DNA of 64,000 bases, taken from positions 26,257-90,256 of IMG/VR virus record IMGVR_UViG_3300048930_001424. One strand, written 5' to 3'. Of this stretch, positions 25,156-50,956 are shown piece after piece (the first letter of the stretch is position 1; each line of letters begins with the position of its first letter). The notes beneath the pieces are model-generated. The model was not told the DNA's origin, did no database searches, and saw nothing but the letters and a program-made list of their open reading frames with translations. The translations under genes were made by a program, and so were the position numbers. Source of the DNA: a virus.

Positions 25156-27087
25156 ATGGCAAAGAAGACTCGAAAGCCCGAATCAGCAACTCACGCCAGC
25201 GCGAACGATTCGTCCGCGACGAAACGCGGCCGCAAGCCGAAGACCCCGAAGACGCCGCCGACGACAGCCGAGCGATTGGGCAGTGTCGTGAAGTCCTGCC
25301 GCAAGATCATGCGGAAAGACAAGGGCCTCAACGGTGACCTCGATCGGTTGCCGATGCTCACCTGGATCATGTTCCTGAAGTTCCTCGACGACATGGAGCA
25401 GATCGAGGAATCCGACGCCAAGATGAAGAAGGCCCGGTACCACTCGGCGATCGAATCGCCATATCGCTGGCGGGATTGGGCGGCGAAGGAGAACGGGATC
25501 ACCGGCCCTGAGCTGCTGTCGTTCATCACACAGGAGAAGACCAGGCGGCCCGACGGCACGGAGGGACCCGGACTACTCAAGTACCTTGGCACGCTCCAGA
25601 ACGGCAAGGGCAGCCGTCGGCAGGTCATCGGCACGGTGTTCGGTGGCGCGGACGGCACCGGTGGCGGCATCACCAGCCGGATGCAGTCTGGCTACCTCCT
25701 CCGTGACGTGATCAACGCTGTCAACTCGATCAACTTCCTCCAGCAGGATGAACTCTTCACGCTCGGCTTCCTCTACGAATCCATGTTGCGAGAGATGCGG
25801 GACGCCGCCGGCGACTCTGGCGAGTTCTACACGCCGCGCCCAGTGGTTCGTTTCATGGTCGAAGCGGTGGACCCTCGCCTCGGTGAAGTGGTGCTCGACC
25901 CCGCGTGCGGCACCGGCGGCTTTCTTGTTGAGGCGTTCAGCCACCTCCAGAAGCAGGCCAAGAGCGTTCAGCAGCGTGAGACCCTCCAGTCCACGTCGAT
26001 CCGAGGCGGCGAGCCCAAGTCGCTGCCGTACCTGCTCTGCCAGATGAACTTGTTGCTGCATGGCGTCGAGCGCCCGCAGATCGACCCCGCCAACTCGCTG
26101 GACGTGAAAGTCACGGAGCTGGGCGACAAGGACCGCGTCGATGCCATCCTCACCAATCCGCCATTCGGCGGTGAGGAAGAACGCGGCATTCTCTCGAACT
26201 TCCCGGCGGACATGCAGACGACCGAAACGGCGATGCTGTTCCTGCAGCTCATCATGCGGAAGTTGCGGCGAGCGCCCAAGCCTGGGCGGGCGGCGGTCAT
26301 CGTTCCCAACGGCACGCTCTTTGGCGACGGCGTGTGCGCGAAGATCAAGGAAGACCTGATCCTCAACTACAACCTGCACACGGTGGTACGCCTGCCGCAG
26401 GGTGTGTTTGAGCCATACACGCCTATCCCCACCAATGTTCTCTTCTTCGAAGCGGGCGAGCCAACACGGACGATCTGGTACTACGAGCTCGCGCTGCCCG
26501 AGGGCCGCAAGAAGTACACCAAGACGCAGCCCATGCAGTTCGAGGAATTCGCGGCCTGTCTGAAGTGGTTCAAGCAGGCGCGGCGGACGGAATCGACCAC
26601 AGCAGAGAACGGCAAGGGCTGGGCGTGGAAGGTGGACATGGCGGCGAAGGTGGCGGAGGCGAAGAAGAAGGCCGCTCCGCACTGGAAGGAAGCCGACGCT
26701 GCCCGCGAGCGCGCGAGCCTGTGCGAGAAACAGGCCCGCGAGGCGGCGGCCGACGCCGTCGCGCTGCGAAAGACCGGAGGAGCATCCTCCGCGATCGATG
26801 CGTTGTGGGATCGGGAGAAGGCGCTGAAGGACAAGGCCAAGGCCGAACTCGTGACGGCGAAGACAGAGCAGGAGGCGGGCGACGCGATCTATTGGCCGAT
26901 CTTCAACCTGGACATCAAGAACCCGTTCAGCGCGGAGGCGCTGGAGCACCTGCCGCCGGAGACGCTGGCCGACAGCATCGCGCAGAAGTCCATGCGAATC
27001 TCCGCGATCATGGATGAAGTGAAGGGGATTCTCGGTATCTCGTCCGATACTGCTGCTGGCCTCGCGACGGCGGGGGCGGGTACATGA
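25156..27087 (+). CDS. hsdM: Type I RM methyltransferase subunit
   Basis: GEFYTPR, DPACGTGGFL, TNPPFGG. Confidence 0.93.
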   Translation: MAKKTRKPESATHASANDSSATKRGRKPKTPKTPPTTAERLGSVVKSCRKIMRKDKGLNGDLDRLPMLTWIMFLKFLDDMEQIEESDAKMKKARYHSAIESPYRWRDWAAKENGITGPELLSFITQEKTRRPDGTEGPGLLKYLGTLQNGKGSRRQVIGTVFGGADGTGGGITSRMQSGYLLRDVINAVNSINFLQQDELFTLGFLYESMLREMRDAAGDSGEFYTPRPVVRFMVEAVDPRLGEVVLDPACGTGGFLVEAFSHLQKQAKSVQQRETLQSTSIRGGEPKSLPYLLCQMNLLLHGVERPQIDPANSLDVKVTELGDKDRVDAILTNPPFGGEEERGILSNFPADMQTTETAMLFLQLIMRKLRRAPKPGRAAVIVPNGTLFGDGVCAKIKEDLILNYNLHTVVRLPQGVFEPYTPIPTNVLFFEAGEPTRTIWYYELALPEGRKKYTKTQPMQFEEFAACLKWFKQARRTESTTAENGKGWAWKVDMAAKVAEAKKKAAPHWKEADAARERASLCEKQAREAAADAVALRKTGGASSAIDALWDREKALKDKAKAELVTAKTEQEAGDAIYWPIFNLDIKNPFSAEALEHLPPETLADSIAQKSMRISAIMDEVKGILGISSDTAAGLATAGAGT

Positions 27088-30563: not shown

Positions 30564-31390
30564 TGCCCCGGTTGGTGCCCGTGGAGATCGGCGAGACCGT
30601 TCACCTCGATGCCATTATCAAGGGCAAGCACGTCGCCACTCGTGCCCGGCTTCGGCTGCTCAAGCCGACCTTGGATGCTCGGTACACCGAGTATTCCGGC
30701 ACCACGGCGGCGTTTGAGGCGCTCGCGGCCAGCACGCTGGTCGGCACGGCTATAGATGATTGTGTGGACTGCTACAACCTTGATCGCAAGCCCGTCGCGG
30801 CGCTGAAGCAGGCGATTCTGGACGCGAGACCTGCGAATCGCAGGTCGCTGTGCCAGTGGTGCCTGATCGACACCTGGAGTGATCTGGATCACTTCGTGCC
30901 AAAGGAAACGTTCCCGGAGTTCTCGGTGATGGCCCGTAATCTTGCGCCGTGCTGCTCCAAGTGCAACAAGGCGAAGGGTGACTACTGGCCCCCGGTTGGC
31001 GTCGTACCCGAGGTGCTGAGCCTCTACTACTCGTCGCTGCTCGATCGACCCTATCTCGCCGCGACCGTGACGCATGCCTTGGGTGGTTCGTCCGCGATCC
31101 AGTTTGCAATCCGGCGGGACGTCGGGCTGACCGCCGCAGAGATTGTGACCCTGGAGACCCACTACTCACGGCTGAAGCTGATGCCACGACTACAAGATGC
31201 CGGCATTAGCGCATTGTCGCGATTCCGTGAGACTCTTCGCGCACATGGGGTACAGAGGGCAAATGCAGTTCAGTTCCTCAGCGACGAGGCTGTCGGCTTG
31301 ACGACCGCCTTTGGTGCAAATCACTATGAAGCATTGACGGCGACAGCGCTTGCGGCGGCTCCGGCGGCGTTGGATGACTATCTGGCATGA
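30563..31390 (+). CDS. HNH endonuclease (PtuB-like)
   Basis: CQWC…LDHFVPK…NLAPCCSKCNKAKG; 1-bp overlap with the ATPase gene. Confidence 0.85.
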   Translation: MPRLVPVEIGETVHLDAIIKGKHVATRARLRLLKPTLDARYTEYSGTTAAFEALAASTLVGTAIDDCVDCYNLDRKPVAALKQAILDARPANRRSLCQWCLIDTWSDLDHFVPKETFPEFSVMARNLAPCCSKCNKAKGDYWPPVGVVPEVLSLYYSSLLDRPYLAATVTHALGGSSAIQFAIRRDVGLTAAEIVTLETHYSRLKLMPRLQDAGISALSRFRETLRAHGVQRANAVQFLSDEAVGLTTAFGANHYEALTATALAAAPAALDDYLA

Positions 31391-31423
31391 GTGTCGCCCT
31401 ACGCAGCGAGCCGTCGATGTTGG

Positions 31424-31456
31424 GCGCGACAAACCCGGCTGGTTAGCAGAGGGGTA
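31424..31456 (+). promoter_or_regulatory. Element-specific promoter motif, copy 1
   Basis: GCGCGACAA-N13-GCAGAGGGGTA upstream of the recombinase operon. Confidence 0.7.
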
Positions 31457-31482
31457 TGGTCGAGGGCTGCGTCCCTCGCCAT

Positions 31483-31752
31483 ATGCCACGACACAAATCG
31501 CAGAACAACCCGACGCTGGCGGGCACGCCGTGCGTTCCGGCCCGCGCCATCGAACTCCTCGCGGCGGGGACGGCCCGGCTGATCGACGCGAGCGCCCACG
31601 ATTCGAGCGTCATCATTGAACACGCCGGTTCCCTTCGGGCGGGACTTGAACTCGCGGATCATGCCGCCCTCAGTGTGCCTACGGGTGAACGCCACCGTCC
31701 CGAACCGGAGAACCCGGGACGATGCTGCCCGAAGGAGCCTGAAGGACGATGA
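31483..31752 (+). CDS. Small hypothetical protein, first gene of the recombinase operon
   Basis: ATGA overlap with the DUF2924 gene; start uncertain. Confidence 0.5.
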   Translation: MPRHKSQNNPTLAGTPCVPARAIELLAAGTARLIDASAHDSSVIIEHAGSLRAGLELADHAALSVPTGERHRPEPENPGRCCPKEPEGR

Positions 31753-32261
31753 GGACCACCGCAACCATCCAGCAACAGATCGACGAGCTGCGAGACATGC
31801 CCGTGTCGCGGCTCCGCGAGCGCTACGCGGAAGTATTCGGCGAGCCGACAGCCTCCGGAAATCGCCAGTGGCTTTTCCGGCGGGTGGCCTGGCGAATCCA
31901 GTCCTTGGCCGAAGGGGACCTCTCCGAGCGGGCGCGGCGTCGGGCCGCGGAGTTGGCCCGGGACGTCGACGTCCGGGTCCGGCCGCCGGGGGAACGGGAA
32001 TCCGACAAAGTCCGCTCCGGCGCGCGGCTCGTGACAATCACTGGACGGCTCGCGTCGGCGGGAACCGACCGCCTGCCCGCGCCCGGCACCGTCCTGCGGC
32101 GCACGTTCAAGGGCGCTGAGCACGAGGTGACGGTTCTCCCCTACGGCTTCGAGTACGAGGGGAAGGCGTACCGATCCCTGTCGGCGGTGGCGACGGCGAT
32201 CACAGGGTCGCACTGGAACGGGTTCCTGTTCTTCGGGCTGACCAAGAAGGGAACAACATGA
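31749..32261 (+). CDS. DUF2924 protein
   Basis: RVAWRIQ…GDLS, PGTVLRR…SLSAVATAITGSHWNGFLFFGL. Confidence 0.88.
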   Translation: MRTTATIQQQIDELRDMPVSRLRERYAEVFGEPTASGNRQWLFRRVAWRIQSLAEGDLSERARRRAAELARDVDVRVRPPGERESDKVRSGARLVTITGRLASAGTDRLPAPGTVLRRTFKGAEHEVTVLPYGFEYEGKAYRSLSAVATAITGSHWNGFLFFGLTKKGTT

Positions 32262-33850
32262 GCTCCGCCGTCACCAAGCGTCCCGCCGCTTCGCGCCGCG
32301 CCGCCGCGGACGCCGCGCTGGGAAGCTCCTCGCCGTCTAAGTCGGGCCCGCGGACCATCCGCTGCGCCATCTACACGCGCAAGAGCACCGAGGAGGGCCT
32401 CAACCAGGAGTTCAACAGCCTGGACGCCCAGCGCGAGAGCGCCATCGCGTACATCGCCAGCCAGAAGAACGAGGGGTGGCTGTGCATCTCCGAGAAGTAC
32501 GACGACGGTGGATTCACCGGCGGGAACATCGAGCGTCCTGCGCTCAAGCGGCTGATGGCCGACATCGAAGCGGGGAAGGTCGACTGCGTGGTGGTCTACA
32601 AGGTAGACCGGCTCAGCCGATCGCTGATGGATTTCGCGCGGCTGATGGCGCTCTTCGACCGCAAGGGCGTGTCGTTCGTCTCCGTCACGCAGCAGTTCAA
32701 CACGACCCACTCGATGGGCCGCCTGACGCTGAACATCCTGCTGTCGTTCGCACAGTTCGAGCGGGAGATCATCTCCGAGCGAACGCGGGACAAGATCGCC
32801 TCCGCGCGGCGCAAGGGCAAGTACCAGCACGGCAAGCCAATCTTGGGGTACGACTTCGTGCCCGCGCCGGCTCCATTCACGGGGCGGCGCCTGGTCGTCA
32901 ACCAGGTCGAGGCGGGTCGCGTCCGGCGCATCTTCGAGTTGTACCTCGAGGTCGAGAGCATCCTGCGAGTTGCCGACGAGTGCAACACCCGCGGTTGGAC
33001 CACGAAGTCGTGGACGACCACCGCTGGGCGCACGGTCGGCAACCGGGAGTTCGACAAAACCATCATCTCGCGGCTCCTTCGCAACCCGCTCTACCTCGGG
33101 AAGGTGCCGCACAACGGTGCGGTGTACGACGGCGAGCACGAAGCGATCATCGACGAGGATCTGTTCCGCCGCGTCCAAGCCCAACTCAAACTCGCCGGCG
33201 AGCGCGGCGGGGCCGGCGTGAAGAACTCGACAGGGTCGCTCCTGGGCGGGTTGGTCCGGTGCAAGGGGTGCGAGTGCGCGATGTCCCCGAGCAGTGCATC
33301 GAAGAAGAAGTCCGACGGGTCACGCACCCGATACCGCTACTACGTCTGCTGCAACGCGGTGAAGCGCGGGCGGCAGCACTGCGCCGCCCCGTCCTTGCCC
33401 GGGCCGGCGCTCGAAGCGTTCGTCCTTGACCAGGTGAAGGCCATTCTGGCCGACTCCCCGCAGATGACGGCTGTCGTTGGCCGTGCGATCGATCTCCTCC
33501 GCGAGGCCGCCAGCGCTCGGATCGCGGAGCAGACGCGGCTCCGTGCCGTGCTCGAACGGCTCTCCGGCGAGGAGCCAACGGCCGCCACGCGCCGCGAGAT
33601 CGAGCGTGTGCGGCGAACGCTCGCGGCGGTTTCCGCGCAGGTGGCGGCGGACGCCGACCGCCTCATCGACGAGGACGAGGTGGCCGGAGCGGTGGAGGCT
33701 TTCGACGGGGTCTGGAACGCGATGACGCAGGCCGAACGCGCCGAGTTCCTGCACGTCGTGATCGCGTCAGTTGAGTACGACGGCCAGACGCAGGACGTCT
33801 CGATCACCTTCAACCCCGAACTCAATCCAGCGGAGACACCCAGCGAATGA
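32258..33850 (+). CDS. Large serine recombinase (integrase)
   Basis: AIYTRKST catalytic Ser, YKVDRLSRS, NPLYLG, Zn ribbon CKGC…YYVC…C. Confidence 0.93.
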   Translation: MSSAVTKRPAASRRAAADAALGSSSPSKSGPRTIRCAIYTRKSTEEGLNQEFNSLDAQRESAIAYIASQKNEGWLCISEKYDDGGFTGGNIERPALKRLMADIEAGKVDCVVVYKVDRLSRSLMDFARLMALFDRKGVSFVSVTQQFNTTHSMGRLTLNILLSFAQFEREIISERTRDKIASARRKGKYQHGKPILGYDFVPAPAPFTGRRLVVNQVEAGRVRRIFELYLEVESILRVADECNTRGWTTKSWTTTAGRTVGNREFDKTIISRLLRNPLYLGKVPHNGAVYDGEHEAIIDEDLFRRVQAQLKLAGERGGAGVKNSTGSLLGGLVRCKGCECAMSPSSASKKKSDGSRTRYRYYVCCNAVKRGRQHCAAPSLPGPALEAFVLDQVKAILADSPQMTAVVGRAIDLLREAASARIAEQTRLRAVLERLSGEEPTAATRREIERVRRTLAAVSAQVAADADRLIDEDEVAGAVEAFDGVWNAMTQAERAEFLHVVIASVEYDGQTQDVSITFNPELNPAETPSE

Positions 33851-34317
33851 CCTCACCCTCCAAACAGGCAGGCCGCGCTTCGGGTTTCGTCCCGATCACG
33901 ACGACGGCGAGATTCGTCGTGCCGGGACGGGAACGAGCGGTGGCGCCTTACGGGGTTGCGCAGAAGCCCGTATCACCCGGTCGGGTGCCGCGGGTCGCGC
34001 GGTTGATGGCGCTGGCGATCCGGTTCGATGCCCTGGTTCGGGAGGGAGCGGTGAGCACGCAGGCCGAGCTAGCTGCGGTCGGCCATGTCACGCGGGCGCG
34101 TGTGACCCAGATCATGAACCTCCTCCACCTCGCGCCAGACCTGCAGGAGGCCATCCTTTTTATGCCTCCTGTCGCGCGCGGCCGAGACCCGGTGACCGAG
34201 CATGAACTTCGGCCCATCGCGGCTGAGGTCGATTGGGGCCGTCAGCGTCACTTGTGGCGACGTGCTTATCAGACGTTTTGCGGCGAAACACCTCATCTTG
34301 CGGCCAATCCCGGGTGA
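33847..34317 (+). CDS. HTH-like hypothetical protein, recombinase-associated
   Basis: QAELAAVGHVTRARVTQIMNLLHLAPDLQEAIL; ATGA overlap. Confidence 0.75.
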   Translation: MTSPSKQAGRASGFVPITTTARFVVPGRERAVAPYGVAQKPVSPGRVPRVARLMALAIRFDALVREGAVSTQAELAAVGHVTRARVTQIMNLLHLAPDLQEAILFMPPVARGRDPVTEHELRPIAAEVDWGRQRHLWRRAYQTFCGETPHLAANPG

Positions 34318-34408
34318 AGATGTGCCTCTCGGCGGTCGATGCCAATAACAGCGACCAGACGCCAGCGCGGGCGTGTTTCCCGGAACGGCGGTCGTCGAGG
34401 CCGACCGC

Positions 34409-35194
34409 ATGGGACACACCCGATTTGGCAACTTACCGAGATCGCGGAAGTGGAAAGAGGTGATCGGCCTCATCGCCGCCGGCGCCGGCGCTGATCAGAT
34501 CGCCAACGCGATTATCCGCGCGGCCGAGTCCGGCCTCATGGCCGCGGCGCATCATACAGGTCTCGTCGAGGCATTCTGGTCGCTCACGCAGCTCACACAG
34601 GCGGCGCGAGAGAAGGACTTTGCCGCCGGCCTTCGAGCCCGTGGCTTTGATGTCCCTGACAACCCCAGCTTGCCGGCAATCATGAGCGCCGTGTCGGCCG
34701 CGATCGACCGCAGCATGCCCAACAACAAGGGCCGTACCGATCTGGGCGAGATGGCACACGCCGCAGCGATCGAGACCACGAACCGGATCGTAACCGAGCG
34801 GGTCTCGTCGTCCCTCTTTGGGGTCTCCGCTCAAGACGTTCAGCGCGCCTTCCACGACCTCGGCACGGTCAAGAACTTCGGCGACCTCGGCAAGCGGTTC
34901 TTCGGCCAGTTGACCAACAAGGTTCTCCAGTCATACGCGAGCCGCGAGTGCGCGAATCACGTCGGTCAGGGGCAGCGGTTTGCCAACCTCGCCGCGAAGG
35001 CCGCCTTCGATGAGGCGATGAACGTGCACTGCAGGCAGGCCGCCGTGATCGTCCAGAAGTTTGCCGGGGAGTGGCAGTCGAAACAAAACTGGACGAACAA
35101 GGACATCGGCGGGATCACGCGCAAGCACGCCGAGGGGTTTGCTCACCAGGCGATGAAAAAGATGGTGGCCGAACTAAAGGAGGGGAACAAGTGA
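34409..35194 (+). CDS. Helical protein with MG- N-terminus, QatB-like partner of QueC
   Basis: GAGG RBS, ATG 34409 giving MGHTRFGNLPRSRKW; GTGA-coupled to the QueC gene. Confidence 0.65.
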   Translation: MGHTRFGNLPRSRKWKEVIGLIAAGAGADQIANAIIRAAESGLMAAAHHTGLVEAFWSLTQLTQAAREKDFAAGLRARGFDVPDNPSLPAIMSAVSAAIDRSMPNNKGRTDLGEMAHAAAIETTNRIVTERVSSSLFGVSAQDVQRAFHDLGTVKNFGDLGKRFFGQLTNKVLQSYASRECANHVGQGQRFANLAAKAAFDEAMNVHCRQAAVIVQKFAGEWQSKQNWTNKDIGGITRKHAEGFAHQAMKKMVAELKEGNK

Positions 35195-37218
35195 ACCCTC
35201 CCGAGATGCTGTTCGCGTGCAATGAGGCCGCTTCGTCCCATCCTGGTACGGTTGCCGGCGTGTCCAAGCTCCGCACCGCGGGGCCGGGAAAAAACGTCAC
35301 CGTCGAGATCAACGACATCGGCCGGCAGCTCAACCAAAACATCCCCGCGCCGCTCATCGACCTGGTCGAGATCGCCGCGCTCGTGTTTGTCGCCGATCAG
35401 ATGCAGCGTCGCGGCGAGGACGATGTCGAATCGATGGGTGCGTCCTGGCGTCGCCGCATGCGGTTCGAGATTCCCGTCCGCGTTCCGAAGCTCTGGAGCT
35501 CCGCCGAGGTCGGCGATGCGCTTCAGGCACTTCTGAGTTTCCTCTCGGAGGATGAGTACGAGTTCACGTTCACCCAGTACAAGCATCCTCCCACGCTCGA
35601 CGCGTACTTGAACTTCGGCTCGCTCATCTCGGCCGACCCTGCCGAGTCGGTGGTCCTGTTCTCGGGCGGCTTGGATTCTCTGGGCGGCACCCTCGAAGAA
35701 GTGGTTCAGGACAAACGATCCACGCTGCTGGTTACGCATGCGTCGGCCAGCACGAAGCGAGAGCGCCACAAGACCCTGCGGGGCATGATCGCTAGCGCCG
35801 CGCCGGGCCCCAAGCCCCAATTCATCAGGATTCGCGCCGACAAGAAGCACCGATCTGAGCGGGAGTACACGCAGCGGGCTCGGTCCTTTCTCTACGCGTC
35901 GTTCGCCGTGGCAGTGGCTCGCATGGCCGGGCTGGACGCCATCCGGTTCTACGAGAATGGCGTCGTGAGTCTGAATCTGCCCCTCTCACCCCAGGTCGTC
36001 GGCTCGCGCGCGACCCGCACGACCCATCCCAGGGTGCTCGCTTGCATGCAGACGTTCTTTTCGCTCATCACGGGGACATCGTTCAGCGTGGAGAACGGGT
36101 TCCTCTGGAAGACCAAGAGCGAAGTGGTCAGCGACATCATTAAGCTCGGCCACGGCGCGATGATTGACTACTCCACGAGCTGCACGCACACCCGCAAGTA
36201 CCGCACCGATCAGCCCCACTGTGGCGAGTGTTCCCAATGCATCGATCGACGGTTCGCGGTCTTGTCCAGTGGCGGTGAACAGTTCGAGCCCGCGGACCGG
36301 TACCGCCACAAGCTGCTGACCGAAGCGCGCGGCGAGGGCGAGTCACGGATCATGTTGGCGTCGTACCTGGAGACGGCTCAGCAGGTCGCGGAGATGGACA
36401 TCACCGCATTCTACAACCGGTATGGAGAAGCAGCCCGCGCGTTCCCCCACATCAAACTACCTGTGGATGAAGCGGCGAAGCGGATCTTCGAGCTCTACCA
36501 GCGCCACGGGAAGCAGGTCGCGTCGGCTATCGACGCAGCCGGCAAGGCGTACATGTCCGAGATCCGGAAACGCACCCTGCCCGAGACGTGCACGTTGCGC
36601 CTCGTGCATGATCCGAACCCCAACACGACGATTGCGAGCGCCCCGTCGGCGTCGGGCATAGCCGAACCGCCGCCGCCGTCGCACCAGCTCGTTCAGGAGG
36701 GCCAGGGCTGGCTGCTGCGGTTCGACGGAATCGACAAGCGATTCGAGCTCAGCGTGGGCATGGTCTATCTGCAGGCCATGCTGTATCGGCCAAACAAGCG
36801 GTTCACGGTGGCCGAGCTCTACTCCATCGCCCGTCCGCACATGAAGGACATCCCGAGCGCCCGGGCAGAGGCGCAGTTGGATGCGAAGGGAGCGCGTTTA
36901 GTCTGGGTGAGGATCACCGAGGTCAACGACGCGATCGCCGCCGCCATCAAGGCCGGCGATACCACCGCCCAGAAGGTCGCAGAGAACGAGAAGGAGAAAC
37001 TGCTCGCGTACCTGCGTGAGCACAACTTCGCCGGACGCATGAAGGTGGAAAGCGCCGACCACAAGCGTCTCAGGGACCGTGTCCGCAATCGGGTGAACGA
37101 CGCGATCGGAATCATCAAGAAGTATCACGCCACCGCCGGCGACCACATCGACGGAGCCATATCTCGTGGCTCTGTCATGGCTTACGCGCCCGTCGACCTG
37201 CCGCCGTGGGAGTTCTGA
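35191..37218 (+). CDS. QueC/QatC-like PP-loop protein fused to a putative DNA-binding C-terminal domain
   Basis: LFSGGLDS, QRARSFLY, YENG, TRTTHP, SCTH…HCGECSQCIDRR; Pro/Ala linker, then ~185-aa domain. Confidence 0.82.
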   Translation: MNPPEMLFACNEAASSHPGTVAGVSKLRTAGPGKNVTVEINDIGRQLNQNIPAPLIDLVEIAALVFVADQMQRRGEDDVESMGASWRRRMRFEIPVRVPKLWSSAEVGDALQALLSFLSEDEYEFTFTQYKHPPTLDAYLNFGSLISADPAESVVLFSGGLDSLGGTLEEVVQDKRSTLLVTHASASTKRERHKTLRGMIASAAPGPKPQFIRIRADKKHRSEREYTQRARSFLYASFAVAVARMAGLDAIRFYENGVVSLNLPLSPQVVGSRATRTTHPRVLACMQTFFSLITGTSFSVENGFLWKTKSEVVSDIIKLGHGAMIDYSTSCTHTRKYRTDQPHCGECSQCIDRRFAVLSSGGEQFEPADRYRHKLLTEARGEGESRIMLASYLETAQQVAEMDITAFYNRYGEAARAFPHIKLPVDEAAKRIFELYQRHGKQVASAIDAAGKAYMSEIRKRTLPETCTLRLVHDPNPNTTIASAPSASGIAEPPPPSHQLVQEGQGWLLRFDGIDKRFELSVGMVYLQAMLYRPNKRFTVAELYSIARPHMKDIPSARAEAQLDAKGARLVWVRITEVNDAIAAAIKAGDTTAQKVAENEKEKLLAYLREHNFAGRMKVESADHKRLRDRVRNRVNDAIGIIKKYHATAGDHIDGAISRGSVMAYAPVDLPPWEF

Positions 37219-37220
37219 CT

Positions 37221-37263
37221 CCGCTACGCCGAATGTAGCGGCCCGCTACGCCGCGTGTAGCCC
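37221..37263. promoter_or_regulatory. Tandem palindromic operator-like sites
   Basis: CCGCTAC-GCCGAAT-GTAGCGG and CCGCTAC-GCCGCGT-GTAGCCC, 22-bp period. Confidence 0.6.
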
Positions 37264-37374
37264 CGGACGTGCCGGAGCGGCTGCCCGGCAGGACGTCCTC
37301 CACGTTTCCTGATCCACATCTCGCACCGAGCTGCTGCCGGGCCCTGCGGGCGATGTCTGGCACGAGGAGGCATC

Positions 37375-37941
37375 ATGCCTTCGATCGCAGCAGACCGGGC
37401 GCTGACGTGCGCCGATCGTAGCGGCTTTGCCGCTTTCCCTTCCCTCACCGTCCGGCAGATGGAGTTCCGCACCGAGCGTCTCGGACGGCTGTACTCCCTC
37501 TTCCCCGACCAGGTCGCCGATCTCCGGCAGGAGTTGGCGGCCGAGATCGTGCGCGCGCTGCGGCGGTTCGATCCGACGATCGCCTCGCGGACGACGTTCA
37601 TGAAGGGCGTCATGAACCTCTGGTACCGGCAGAAGTGCAAGCAGCTGCGCCGCGAAGCGGCGGAACGCGACCGGCTCGTTCCTCTGCCGCCGCTGGGGAC
37701 CGAGGGCAGGGACTTCGCAGACCGCCGCCTCGGTGGCGTGGCCGAAGTGGACGCACGCCTCGATCTCGCCGACCGCATCGCGGATCTGCCGCAGGACCTG
37801 TTCGCGCTCGCCCGCGACCTGCTCGCGGGCAAGTCGGTCCCGGAGATCGCCGCCGAACGCGGCGTTCACCGGGGGACAGTGAACCGCATGGTCCTGCAAC
37901 TGCGCGCCCGCCTGGCCGACCTCGATCCGGCCGCCAACTAG
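37375..37941 (+). CDS. ECF-like sigma-70 family factor
   Basis: DLRQEL…LRRFDP…TF region 2; C-terminal HTH SVPEIAAERGVHRGTV; GAGGAGG RBS. Confidence 0.78.
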   Translation: MPSIAADRALTCADRSGFAAFPSLTVRQMEFRTERLGRLYSLFPDQVADLRQELAAEIVRALRRFDPTIASRTTFMKGVMNLWYRQKCKQLRREAAERDRLVPLPPLGTEGRDFADRRLGGVAEVDARLDLADRIADLPQDLFALARDLLAGKSVPEIAAERGVHRGTVNRMVLQLRARLADLDPAAN

Positions 37942-37942
37942 C

Positions 37943-37975
37943 GCGCGACAAGTGGCGGGCGCGGGCAGAGGGGTA
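37943..37975 (+). promoter_or_regulatory. Element-specific promoter motif, copy 2
   Basis: GCGCGACAA-N13-GCAGAGGGGTA upstream of the replication operon. Confidence 0.7.
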
Positions 37976-38124
37976 TTGGCGTGCCCCCTGCCCGTACCCC
38001 GCGCACGGAACCGCCCGGCCCTGCCGACGAGAGCCTGCCGCTCGTCCGGTTGGGGCAGGGCGATTTCACCCGCGACCTGCGGGCCGAGGACCTCGATCCC
38101 CATCACCACAGGAACGGAGCCACC

Positions 38125-38865
38125 ATGCCCCTACTCGATTCGGTGATCACGACCACGACACCCTCGCCGCCCAAGATTCTCGTCTACGGCACTCCGGGCG
38201 TCGGGAAGACCACGTTCGCCGCCAGCGCCGGCGCGCTGCTCCTGGACTGCGAGAACGGCGCAGGCGCCGTGCCCGGGCTCACGCGGACCCCGTTCCTCAA
38301 GAGCTGGCCCGAAGCGCAGGCCTGGCTCGCCGAGATCGAGGCCCAGCCCCCCGAGGGGCTCGGAGCCGTGGCGATCGACACGCTCGACTGGCTTGTGCAG
38401 CGCATCGTCGAGTACGTCGTGATGGACCTCGACAAGAAGAGCAAGGGCGAGGTTACCAACACGCTCTCCTCGGCCCACGGCGGATACTTCAAGGCCCGCG
38501 AGATCGTCAACAACATCGTCAGCCGCGACCTGCTCCCGCTGCTCAACGCAATCGCCGACCGCGGCATCGCCGTGATCCTGCTGGCGCACGCGGCCAACAC
38601 CAAGATCACCACGCCCGAGGGGTACGACGTGCGGCTCGCCGCGCCGGATATCCCGCAGTGGATCGCCCCGACGTTCGTCGAGTGGGCCGACGCCGTGCTC
38701 TACGCCTCGCGCGAAACCACGGGCGAGCGCGTGCTCACGACCGAGGGAACGAGCAACGTCACCGCCAAGAACCGCTACGGCCTGCCGTCCAAGGTGGGCC
38801 TGTCCTGGAAGGACCTGTCGGACGCGATCCAGCATGGGCTGGAGCGCCAGTCGGCCGGTCGCTGA
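38125..38865 (+). CDS. AAA_24 / Sak4-like ATPase (phage recombinase)
   Basis: KILVYGTPGVGKTTFA, AIDTLD, AKNRYGLP; alternative in-frame GTG at 37981. Confidence 0.85.
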   Translation: MPLLDSVITTTTPSPPKILVYGTPGVGKTTFAASAGALLLDCENGAGAVPGLTRTPFLKSWPEAQAWLAEIEAQPPEGLGAVAIDTLDWLVQRIVEYVVMDLDKKSKGEVTNTLSSAHGGYFKAREIVNNIVSRDLLPLLNAIADRGIAVILLAHAANTKITTPEGYDVRLAAPDIPQWIAPTFVEWADAVLYASRETTGERVLTTEGTSNVTAKNRYGLPSKVGLSWKDLSDAIQHGLERQSAGR

Positions 38866-50923: not shown

Positions 50924-50956
50924 GCGCGACAACACACCGGCTGGAGCAGAGGGGTA
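50924..50956 (+). promoter_or_regulatory. Element-specific promoter motif, copy 3
   Basis: GCGCGACAA-N13-GCAGAGGGGTA, 5 nt before the GTG of the head operon. Confidence 0.72.

Follow-up and report, generated by a model that had tools for sequence, protein, structure and literature searches.

The closest described relatives of the locus considered here are the QatB and QatC proteins of the QatABCD anti-phage system. According to one report, the modified N-terminal peptide of QatB, carrying a deazaguanine adduct, was detected by liquid chromatography-tandem mass spectrometry (LC-MS/MS) (PMC13639016); another group writes that the reaction was not reconstituted and that the substrate-binding residues of QatC are altered (PMC13279940). 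As described in the latter source, QatB proteins start with MGTS, have conserved P16 and W18, carry tails of 30-90 residues and lose defence upon a change of G2; QatBC alone protects against lambda-vir, and the mechanism by which modified QatB restricts phages is called an open question. It is also important to note that qatA and qatD are reported to adjoin only about one-third of the QatC-cluster genes (PMC13279940; PMC13329287), and that a 2026 survey lists for this cluster a Zn site along with the motifs D-x4-R...WxR, RxRxF/Y, ExG, T-x-T-HP and TK (PMC13329287). Here, we describe a divergent QatB-QatC pair from the IMG/VR record IMGVR_UViG_3300048930_001424. The analysed DNA, hereafter the window, is the right-hand 64 kb (64,000 nucleotides, positions 26,257 to 90,256) of this 90,256-bp provirus record. 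In the window, the QatC-like enzyme is fused to a predicted winged-helix domain, and the fusion gene is followed by two tandem palindromes and a phage sigma gene. We give about even chances to the proposal that the pair is the input module of a DNA-binding regulator controlling the phage's own sigma gene of the extracytoplasmic function (ECF) type.

The protein encoded by the upstream gene of the pair, whose N-terminus reads MGHTRFGNLPRSRKW, had no sequence matches in Pfam, PADLOC (even at E up to 10), PHROGs, NCBIfam or the PDB, so that its identity as a QatB-like protein comes from the fold search. The AlphaFold2 (AF2) model is all-helical (pLDDT 89.1), and its top PDB fold match is QatB 9y01_A, with a Foldseek probability of 1.00 and template-modelling scores of 0.53/0.61. 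The VIA fold search returned the same chain with Z 12.8 and a root mean square deviation (rmsd) of 3.9 over 208/215 aligned residues (model residues 7-260 against residues 64-287 of 9y01_A), the next match reaching Z 4.4. Homologues of this protein form 118 clusters at 90% identity. The motif [M/V]GH was found in 106 of these, at the start in 95 and just inside a longer annotated start in 11, while the remaining 12 clusters are truncated or odd; it is retained in homologues at 25-39% identity. M1, G2, H3, R13 and W15 are invariant among 34 aligned members, and the conserved N-terminus MGH...LPRSRKW (MGH...LP10..R13.W15) amounts to a Met-Gly motif followed by a conserved Pro and Trp, the remainder of the protein being an all-helical globule. 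As modelled, the partner thus has the QatB fold and, throughout the alignment, an invariant N-terminal Gly.

The second gene (35191-37218, plus strand) encodes a fusion protein of 675 amino acids (aa). Its GTG start, with AAGGAGG just ahead of it, overlaps the TGA of the upstream gene (GTGA), an arrangement by which the two genes are, judging from the sequence, translationally coupled. The enzyme part matched QatC in PADLOC (6.9e-51), the QatC chains 9zee_B (7.4e-29) and 9vlk_A (2.2e-28) among PDB sequences, and the Pfam QueC family (28.7 bits at a cut-off of 22 bits); against the NCBIfam QatC model NF041925 it scored 194 bits, under the equivalog cut-off of 280 bits. SGGLDS (residues 158-163) and the Zn-binding Cys cluster (C331, C344-G-x-C347-x-x-C350-x-x-R353-R354) are invariant across 34 aligned homologues, and so are the QatC motifs RxRxF, ExG, TRTTHP and WKTK/KTK. 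By eye, the QatC-specific positions are D69...R74...W86-R-R88, R229-A-R231-S-F233, E255-N-G257, T275-R-T277-T-H279-P280 and K307-T308-K309, with a spacing in the first motif (D...R...WxR) four residues longer than listed. Such conservation indicates a QatC-like enzyme whose catalytic and Zn residues are under selection.

No match to QatA (KAP NTPase, PF07693) or QatD (TatD, PF01026) was found in the 90,256-bp provirus, while control genomes did match, and the TGT and PTPS/QueD families gave no match there either; CD-NTase, QueE and FolE lay outside this search. The preliminary description of the stretch had recognised no QatA, QatD, CD-NTase or queuosine genes, and this statement holds for the four families searched. 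Lacking KAP NTPase, TatD, TGT and PTPS matches, the locus is best called a divergent QatBC-like pair and not a QatABCD system.

Beyond the enzyme part, and joined to it by a Pro/Ala-rich linker, there is an extra domain of 179 aa (residues 497-675). In its AF2 model (pLDDT 81.8), three strands and two helices are followed by a long helical hairpin, another long helix and a terminal beta hairpin. An exhaustive VIA search of 48,161 chains placed OmpR-family DNA-binding domains at all of the top eight positions, with moderate Z values of 8.0-9.6: BaeR (Z 9.6), GlnR (Z 8.6, 89/95 residues), CssR, AdeR, ToxR, CpxR, CadC and ArlR. These alignments cover 84-98 residues of targets 88-218 long (for 8hml_B, 89/95 residues with an rmsd of 2.6). 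As they run from model residue 1 as far as residue 175 or so, the hairpin (about residues 65-120 of the domain) is an insertion. ESM Atlas returned unnamed clusters only. The model of residues 497-675 is thus that of a putative DNA-binding domain, a winged helix of the OmpR/PhoB type into which a helical hairpin is inserted. Independent support for a winged helix comes from four sibling phages (L036, L075, L079 and L080; L-numbered labels denote comparison loci fetched for this analysis). These phages encode, at the corresponding place in the genome, QatC-like proteins of 35-39% identity whose C-terminal part is a canonical Trans_reg_C domain (PF00486), scoring 27.8-33.1 bits at a Pfam gathering score of 26.2.

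Fusions of QatC with the window's own type of domain form 46 clusters at 40-99% identity, and 44 of them measure 669-687 aa. A search of 1.84 billion representative proteins, with E up to 0.001, found the domain in 1,176; it is C-terminal in almost all of the best 150 of the 1,176, which are proteins of about 190 to 1,180 aa. When 100 domain-bearing representatives were scanned with Pfam, TPR_12 was found in 15, AAA_16 in 11, QueC in 6 and Response_reg in 1, most having no family. The same domain is attached to unrelated N-terminal parts in the corresponding phage slot of L047 and L094. Going by these sequence searches, the domain is reused as a C-terminal module of many other multi-domain proteins. 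Three TPR proteins of Planctomycetota (L117:19-2124, L122:193-2046 and L125:91-2067) end in it; tandem palindromes lie 3' of the latter two, and L117 has one palindrome with a different arm type. It also ends a helicase-like protein with Helicase_C and archaeal helicase domain 4 (L133:1-2082), where one perfect palindrome was seen. More distant QatC-like proteins in L111 (7872-9761, minus strand), L108 (10400-12292, plus strand) and L109 (10312-12102, plus strand) adjoin MGH-starting partners. By eye, their C-terminal ends resemble a PD-(D/E)xK fold, a simple helix-turn-helix (HTH) and a MarR-like winged helix, respectively, and no tool confirmed these readings; PDB sequence searches with two of the three ends, that of L111 among them, gave nothing relevant.

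Most of what the preliminary description had read at this locus stands. It had named an MG-starting helical protein coupled to a QueC-like enzyme, a QatBC-like identity for the two and an extra C-terminal domain, with tandem palindromes and a sigma gene coming next. It had also raised the points that Gly2 might be conserved, that the fusion might recur in homologues, that the added domain might bind DNA and that siblings might join it to other N-terminal parts. The first two were borne out by the cluster counts above, the third agrees with the modelled winged-helix fold, and the N-terminal parts found include STAND/TPR, receiver, helicase and unknown ones.

The two palindromes, GCTAC-N7-GTAGC at 37223-37239 and 37245-37261, have a period of 22 bp, and the first begins 5 nt past the stop codon of the fusion gene. 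In the window alone they are only mildly unusual (three matches with up to one mismatch against 0.62 expected, a number reached in 6 of 100 shuffles), so that their weight comes from comparison across loci and not from window statistics. Up to the sigma ATG there is a spacer of 156 bp that hardly varies across 10 loci whose QatC-like proteins are 66-90% identical to that of the window, and synonymous sites in the last codons of the fusion differ among the same loci. The palindromes themselves are invariant or nearly so in 12 aligned loci. The same motif lies 3' of QatC fusions that are 45% (L093) and 35% (L107) identical, and palindromes with changed arms (GCCAC, GTCAC) follow L078, L047 and L094.

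A profile of the domain, run on 401 Planctomycetota genomes, found it in 51 and returned 30 loci, three of which (L120, L121 and L129) were already in the comparison set. Two 5-N7-5 palindromes with a period of 19-23 bp, no further than 110 nt past the stop codon, were present at 19 of these 30 domain-ending genes, versus 59 of 1,700 control windows from the same loci; for regions 3' of other long open reading frames (ORFs), the count was 7 of 195. In general form, the sites read xxxAC-N7-GTxxx, with a period of 20-22 bp. The arm types observed were GCTAC, GCGAC, GCCAC, GTTAC, GTCAC and CCTCAC, with the inner AC...GT nearly constant; the two arms differ between loci yet stay complementary to each other. 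The palindromes go together with the domain, and a change in one arm is matched by a change in the other. In imperfect second sites the mismatch falls on arm position 3 and, by eye, is mostly not G:U, which favours protein-binding DNA sites over RNA stems. Downstream of the Trans_reg_C fusions, the repeats are direct, with a 23-bp period (GGTAATCGC twice or CGGTAAG twice), so the type of repeat changes with the type of DNA-binding domain. Among 25 sequences, no clear rule connected residues of the recognition helix with the half-site type.

The gene behind the palindromes encodes a sigma-like protein. Its single sequence matched PHROG 1740 at 1.7e-05 and NCBIfam sigma70-ECF with 30.2 bits, under the cut-off, and a profile built from 14 family members matched RpoE/SigE in the PDB (3.9e-08; profile positions 40-191), in accordance with sigma regions 2 and 4. 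Jackhmmer found a sigma homologue just ahead of the Sak4 gene in 80 of 96 sources, on which account we regard it as a core gene of the phage family; within this family, the palindromes sit about 110-150 nt ahead of it. In 13 of the 30 sampled domain loci, a sigma gene lies directly downstream of the domain gene on the same strand. Two tandem sigma-like genes precede the Sak4 gene in L027, L031 and L041.

A bipartite motif, GCGCGACAA-N13-GCAGAGGGGTA, occurs in the window in three exact copies against 0.01 expected. The copies precede the recombinase operon (31424-31456), directly follow the sigma gene (37943-37975) and precede the head operon (50924-50956). At the first two of these places, the motif was found in 17 of 143 fetched loci, including L016 and L054, which have no QatBC. 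The motif may be a promoter read by the phage sigma. Composed of 9 nt, a 13-nt spacer and 11 nt, it ends 5 nt ahead of a GTG start in copies 2 and 3; given this distance, transcripts are possibly leaderless, or the second box holds a ribosome-binding site. A scan for sigma-70 promoters and terminators showed nothing useful between the genes. Six libraries on record as RNA hold part of the window, and contigs of three of them cover the QatB-like and QatC-like genes and the spacer into sigma; since such contigs span the whole phage and may include DNA, they are uninformative on expression or transcript ends.

The QatBC-like pair lies in a variable slot between the serine-recombinase module and the core sigma gene. 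Relatives were collected through their SSB gene, independently of QatBC, which gave 31 loci with both slot borders; the pair was present in 8, three of these being already in the comparison set. L016 and L054 have no QatBC and are nevertheless close to the window (recombinase 94%, sigma 91% and Sak4 96% identical). In L016 and in L039, likewise without QatBC, the sigma leader and the first 23 or so sigma codons are unrelated to those of the window and contain a different palindrome. Such a replacement indicates that the exchange unit consists of the regulator genes, the spacer and the 5' end of sigma, which, by analogy, resembles an immunity-region swap. The slot of these two phages holds two genes without annotation, for 439 aa and 336 aa, and the unrelated leader carries an 8-bp-arm palindrome, TTGCACTT...AAGTGCAA (L016:5830-6080, L039:4830-5100); this may be a second type of regulator plus operator. 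Nine proteins encoded by alternative slot genes gave no family in Pfam and PADLOC, two of them in NCBIfam as well, and a relaxed search with our own profile of the domain revealed no hidden copy among them. QatBC pairs from other Planctomycetota genomes, 25-39% identical, still stand right after the DUF2924/recombinase/HTH module, so that the association is an old one. In the phage part of the provirus, the repressor-type families HTH_3 and Peptidase_S24 had no match. A sludge RNA-library contig (4,377 nt; window 33290-38076) runs from the end of the recombinase gene into the sigma gene, but the roughly 3.1 kb in between do not match the window; it is, from its sequence, another slot variant present in the environment.

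The domain logic (receiver, STAND/TPR and other sensors on one output domain), the paired sites and the position before a core sigma gene make a regulator the best supported model. In such a model, dimers of the fusion protein would occupy both palindromes and set the transcription of sigma, the simplest role being that of a repressor or gate in lysogens. If QatBC and Cap9 are a guide, the QatC part, using ATP, would attach a 7-deazaguanine-type adduct to Gly2 of the QatB-like protein bound to it, and the state of this adduct, or the signal triggering it, would alter operator occupancy. Regulator, operators and 5' end of sigma would move between related phages as one cassette, in the manner of an immunity region, and this cassette could also confer superinfection defence. 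It is tempting to suppose that the N-terminal conjugation of a nucleobase by QatC to QatB serves here as the input of a transcription factor, the state of the complex setting the occupancy of two operators and gating the whole phage programme; we put this forward tentatively and, on balance, somewhat doubt it. The cassette may control phage gene expression and not serve defence alone. The preliminary description had taken QatC deazaguanylation of QatB as known: the adduct reported from LC-MS/MS (PMC13639016) backs it, and the reaction that PMC13279940 describes as not reconstituted makes it less than certain.

Several observations count against such a regulator. Pfam was empty for the C-terminal domain even at E up to 10, PF00486 included; Foldseek returned nothing at E up to 0.001, its weak hits, many of them OmpR-type, all having E above 0.4; and the Z of 8-9.6 falls in what VIA itself calls its 'middling' range. 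Among the 30 domain loci, 11 have no tandem palindrome and 17 no detected downstream sigma gene, and the paired changes of both palindrome arms would also fit RNA hairpins. In 23 of the 31 SSB-anchored relatives, other, unrelated genes fill the slot, so QatBC is dispensable for the phage family, and the small HTH-like protein of PHROG 14161, present in all relatives, is an alternative candidate for the repressor. The first helix of the QatB-like model begins at residue 13, leaving a tail of about 12 residues. The disordered tail of published QatB, 30-90 residues long and reaching the QatC active site, is absent from the model, which makes the entry of Gly2 into the active site only putative. 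Finally, QatBC alone is, as PMC13279940 reports, an experimentally shown defence unit.

This last point leads to the main rival explanation, namely that the prophage carries the pair as a minimal QatBC anti-phage system, as cargo of a hotspot beside the recombinase, and not as a developmental switch. The winged helix would then only tether the enzyme, autoregulate or insulate sigma from read-through, and would stand in for the DNA-binding QatA or the nuclease QatD. We consider this unlikely as the full explanation, keeping in mind that it is compatible with control of sigma. The published activity of QatBC against lambda-vir and the frequent separation of QatC-cluster genes from qatA and qatD (PMC13279940; PMC13329287) agree with it, as do the variable slot with QatBC in 8 of 31 relatives, the large defence island directly upstream, and the conservation of catalytic residues and Gly2 as in defence QatBC. 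The end of the distant QatC-like protein in L111 would suit it too if it were a nuclease, which is how it looks by eye; however, the PDB sequence search did not support that reading. Defence also leaves several features unaccounted for: the operator-like pairs sit downstream of the gene, ahead of sigma, and not at its own promoter; the same domain ends receiver and STAND/TPR proteins, where a transcriptional output domain usually stands; the cassette is exchanged together with the sigma leader; and the pair is kept at one position down to 25-39% identity. The preliminary description had offered both a lysis/lysogeny switch and a minimal defence system; with the cassette present in only part of the relatives and QatBC alone a published defence unit, both are candidate roles.

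Two further explanations concern the palindromes and the direction of the signal. The palindromes might be RNA hairpins, acting as a terminator or processing element or in the leader of the sigma mRNA, with no binding by the domain. Co-varying arms keep the pairing possible, a third hairpin-like GC element often comes next, and a place directly past a stop codon would suit a terminator. However, no T-run follows the palindromes, Rfam was empty over 31300-38200 at E up to 1, and the second-site mismatches lie in the middle of a 5-bp stem. The Trans_reg_C fusions, moreover, have direct, non-palindromic repeats at the same place and period, and the element follows the protein domain and not the downstream gene, all of which makes the hairpins improbable in our view. 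Alternatively, the winged helix could bring QatC to the sigma promoter, so that DNA binding would be the input and local modification of the QatB-like protein, or of a different substrate (the sigma factor or RNA polymerase, for example), the output. Intact enzyme residues are in line with such a DNA-targeted enzyme, and the question of how modified QatB restricts phages, left open in PMC13279940, gives it some room. Against this stand the classical sensors found N-terminally in other architectures with the domain, and a second substrate is without support; we regard this explanation as highly improbable.

The features of the locus are collected in the table below. The closest relatives in public genomes are all metagenome-assembled genomes, labelled Phycisphaerales or Phycisphaeraceae. 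From 31.7 kb onward, all genes of the window are on the plus strand, and the sigma gene is followed by those for a Sak4-like ATPase, SSB, RusA, a helicase and a primase.

Features of the QatBC-like cassette and its borders (window coordinates).
Feature	Position	Strand	Remark
DUF2924 gene, large serine recombinase and small HTH-like protein (PHROG 14161)	31749..34317	+	left border of variable slot
QatB-like partner gene	34409..35194	+	261 aa
QatC-like part of the 675-aa fusion (residues 1-496), Pro/Ala-rich linker included	35191..36678	+	
C-terminal domain of the fusion, residues 497-675 (36679-37215), and stop codon	36679..37218	+	OmpR/PhoB-like winged helix (model)
Two tandem 17-bp palindromes, candidate operators of the fused winged-helix domain	37223..37261	.	
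Leader/promoter region of the sigma gene, conserved	37262..37374	+	GCCGG...CCGGC hairpin-like GC element; GAGGAGG ahead of ATG
ECF-type phage sigma gene	37375..37941	+	188 aa
Bipartite motif GCGCGACAA-N13-GCAGAGGGGTA directly ahead of the replication operon	37943..37975	+	candidate sigma-read promoter

Immediately to the left of the phage, window positions 5477-31390 form a defence island, as seen from PADLOC and other matches. It contains genes for an XRE-type HTH protein, an HTH-SNF2-NOV_C helicase, PRTase-CE, a NADAR-DUF1156 methylase, a DUF499 ATPase, GmrSD, type I HsdR/HsdM with a 671-aa protein lacking a Pfam match, and PDC-M01A/B (a Septu-like ATPase and HNH). L009 and L010 share the last three genes of the island with the window, beside the same recombinase module. 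At 34340-34370, 40-60 nt upstream of the QatB-like start, there is an AT-richer block (CGAT.CCAATAACAGCGACC) that 7 of 8 aligned loci conserve, a possible promoter of the cassette itself.

Neither a QatC fused to a DNA-binding domain nor this particular domain was mentioned in full-text literature searches or in the main text, as distinct from the supplements, of the QatBC papers. If our interpretation is right, the C-terminal domain defines a large undescribed family of one-component regulators with paired operators directly 3' of their own gene, on which QatC, STAND/TPR, receiver, helicase and unknown modules serve as interchangeable sensors. The domain-plus-palindrome rule would make operators predictable from sequence for some 1,200 representative proteins, each standing for a cluster at 50% identity, and would offer a first regulatory map for temperate Planctomycetota phages. 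The cited papers leave open by what means QatBC senses infection and what the role of modified QatB is; here, QatC occurs naturally fused to a predicted DNA-binding domain, with a likely cognate site and a target gene at hand, which would offer a simple read-out of QatC activity. Protein deazaguanylation would thereby extend from immunity to gene regulation.

Finally, we would like to compare this locus with known systems. With the QatBC core of QatABCD from P. aeruginosa and E. coli (PDB 9y01, 9zee and 9vlk), it has in common the QueC-family SGGxDS motif, the Thr-x-Thr-His-Pro loop and the Zn Cys cluster, as well as a partner, the product of the gene just upstream, with the same all-helical fold and an invariant N-terminal Met-Gly followed by a Pro...Trp motif. 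Unlike QatABCD, the window provirus has no QatA and QatD, its enzyme stays under the NCBI equivalog cut-off for QatC and carries a 179-aa DNA-binding-like domain, and the pair keeps a fixed prophage place ahead of a sigma gene. Its partner has no detectable sequence similarity to QatB, starts with MGH instead of MGTS and is devoid of the disordered tail of 30-90 residues. The QueC family also includes Cap9 of type IV CBASS, whose action on the N-terminal Gly of its partner protein serves for priming or switching, as we assume by analogy here. However, Cap9 is a minimal QueC (about 185 aa) with an ancestral active site, its substrate is a CD-NTase, and its system includes the TGT-like Cap10, whereas the window provirus has no TGT match (CD-NTase being outside the search). 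CapK-CapS, as presented in a preprint (bioRxiv 10.64898/2026.02.02.703251), is also an enzyme-substrate pair in which covalent modification governs a DNA-bound regulator of adjacent genes, in the context of immunity; it consists of a kinase and a STAS-domain repressor, proteins unrelated to ours, and there the substrate binds DNA, while here the enzyme carries the domain.

OmpR/PhoB output domains and MalT/AfsR-type STAND regulators likewise place a winged-helix output on receiver, NTPase/TPR or other sensors and bind tandem repeats about two helical turns apart. In contrast to OmpR/PhoB, the window domain has an inserted helical hairpin of about 55 residues and no Pfam match, and its candidate sites are palindromic, not direct, and lie just 3' of the regulator's own gene. 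In lambdoid phages, the immunity region comprises cI and tandem 17-bp palindromic operators spaced by some two turns of the helix, which adjoin the regulator gene and precede the early lytic genes. Phages that are otherwise similar exchange this region as a cassette, and defence genes, such as the co-transcribed rexAB, can ride with the repressor. The window differs from this arrangement in its co-oriented genes, in having a sigma gene as the putative target and an enzyme fusion without a LexA-like cleavage domain as the candidate regulator, and resembles it in the tandem 17-bp palindromes and in the exchange of the whole cassette.

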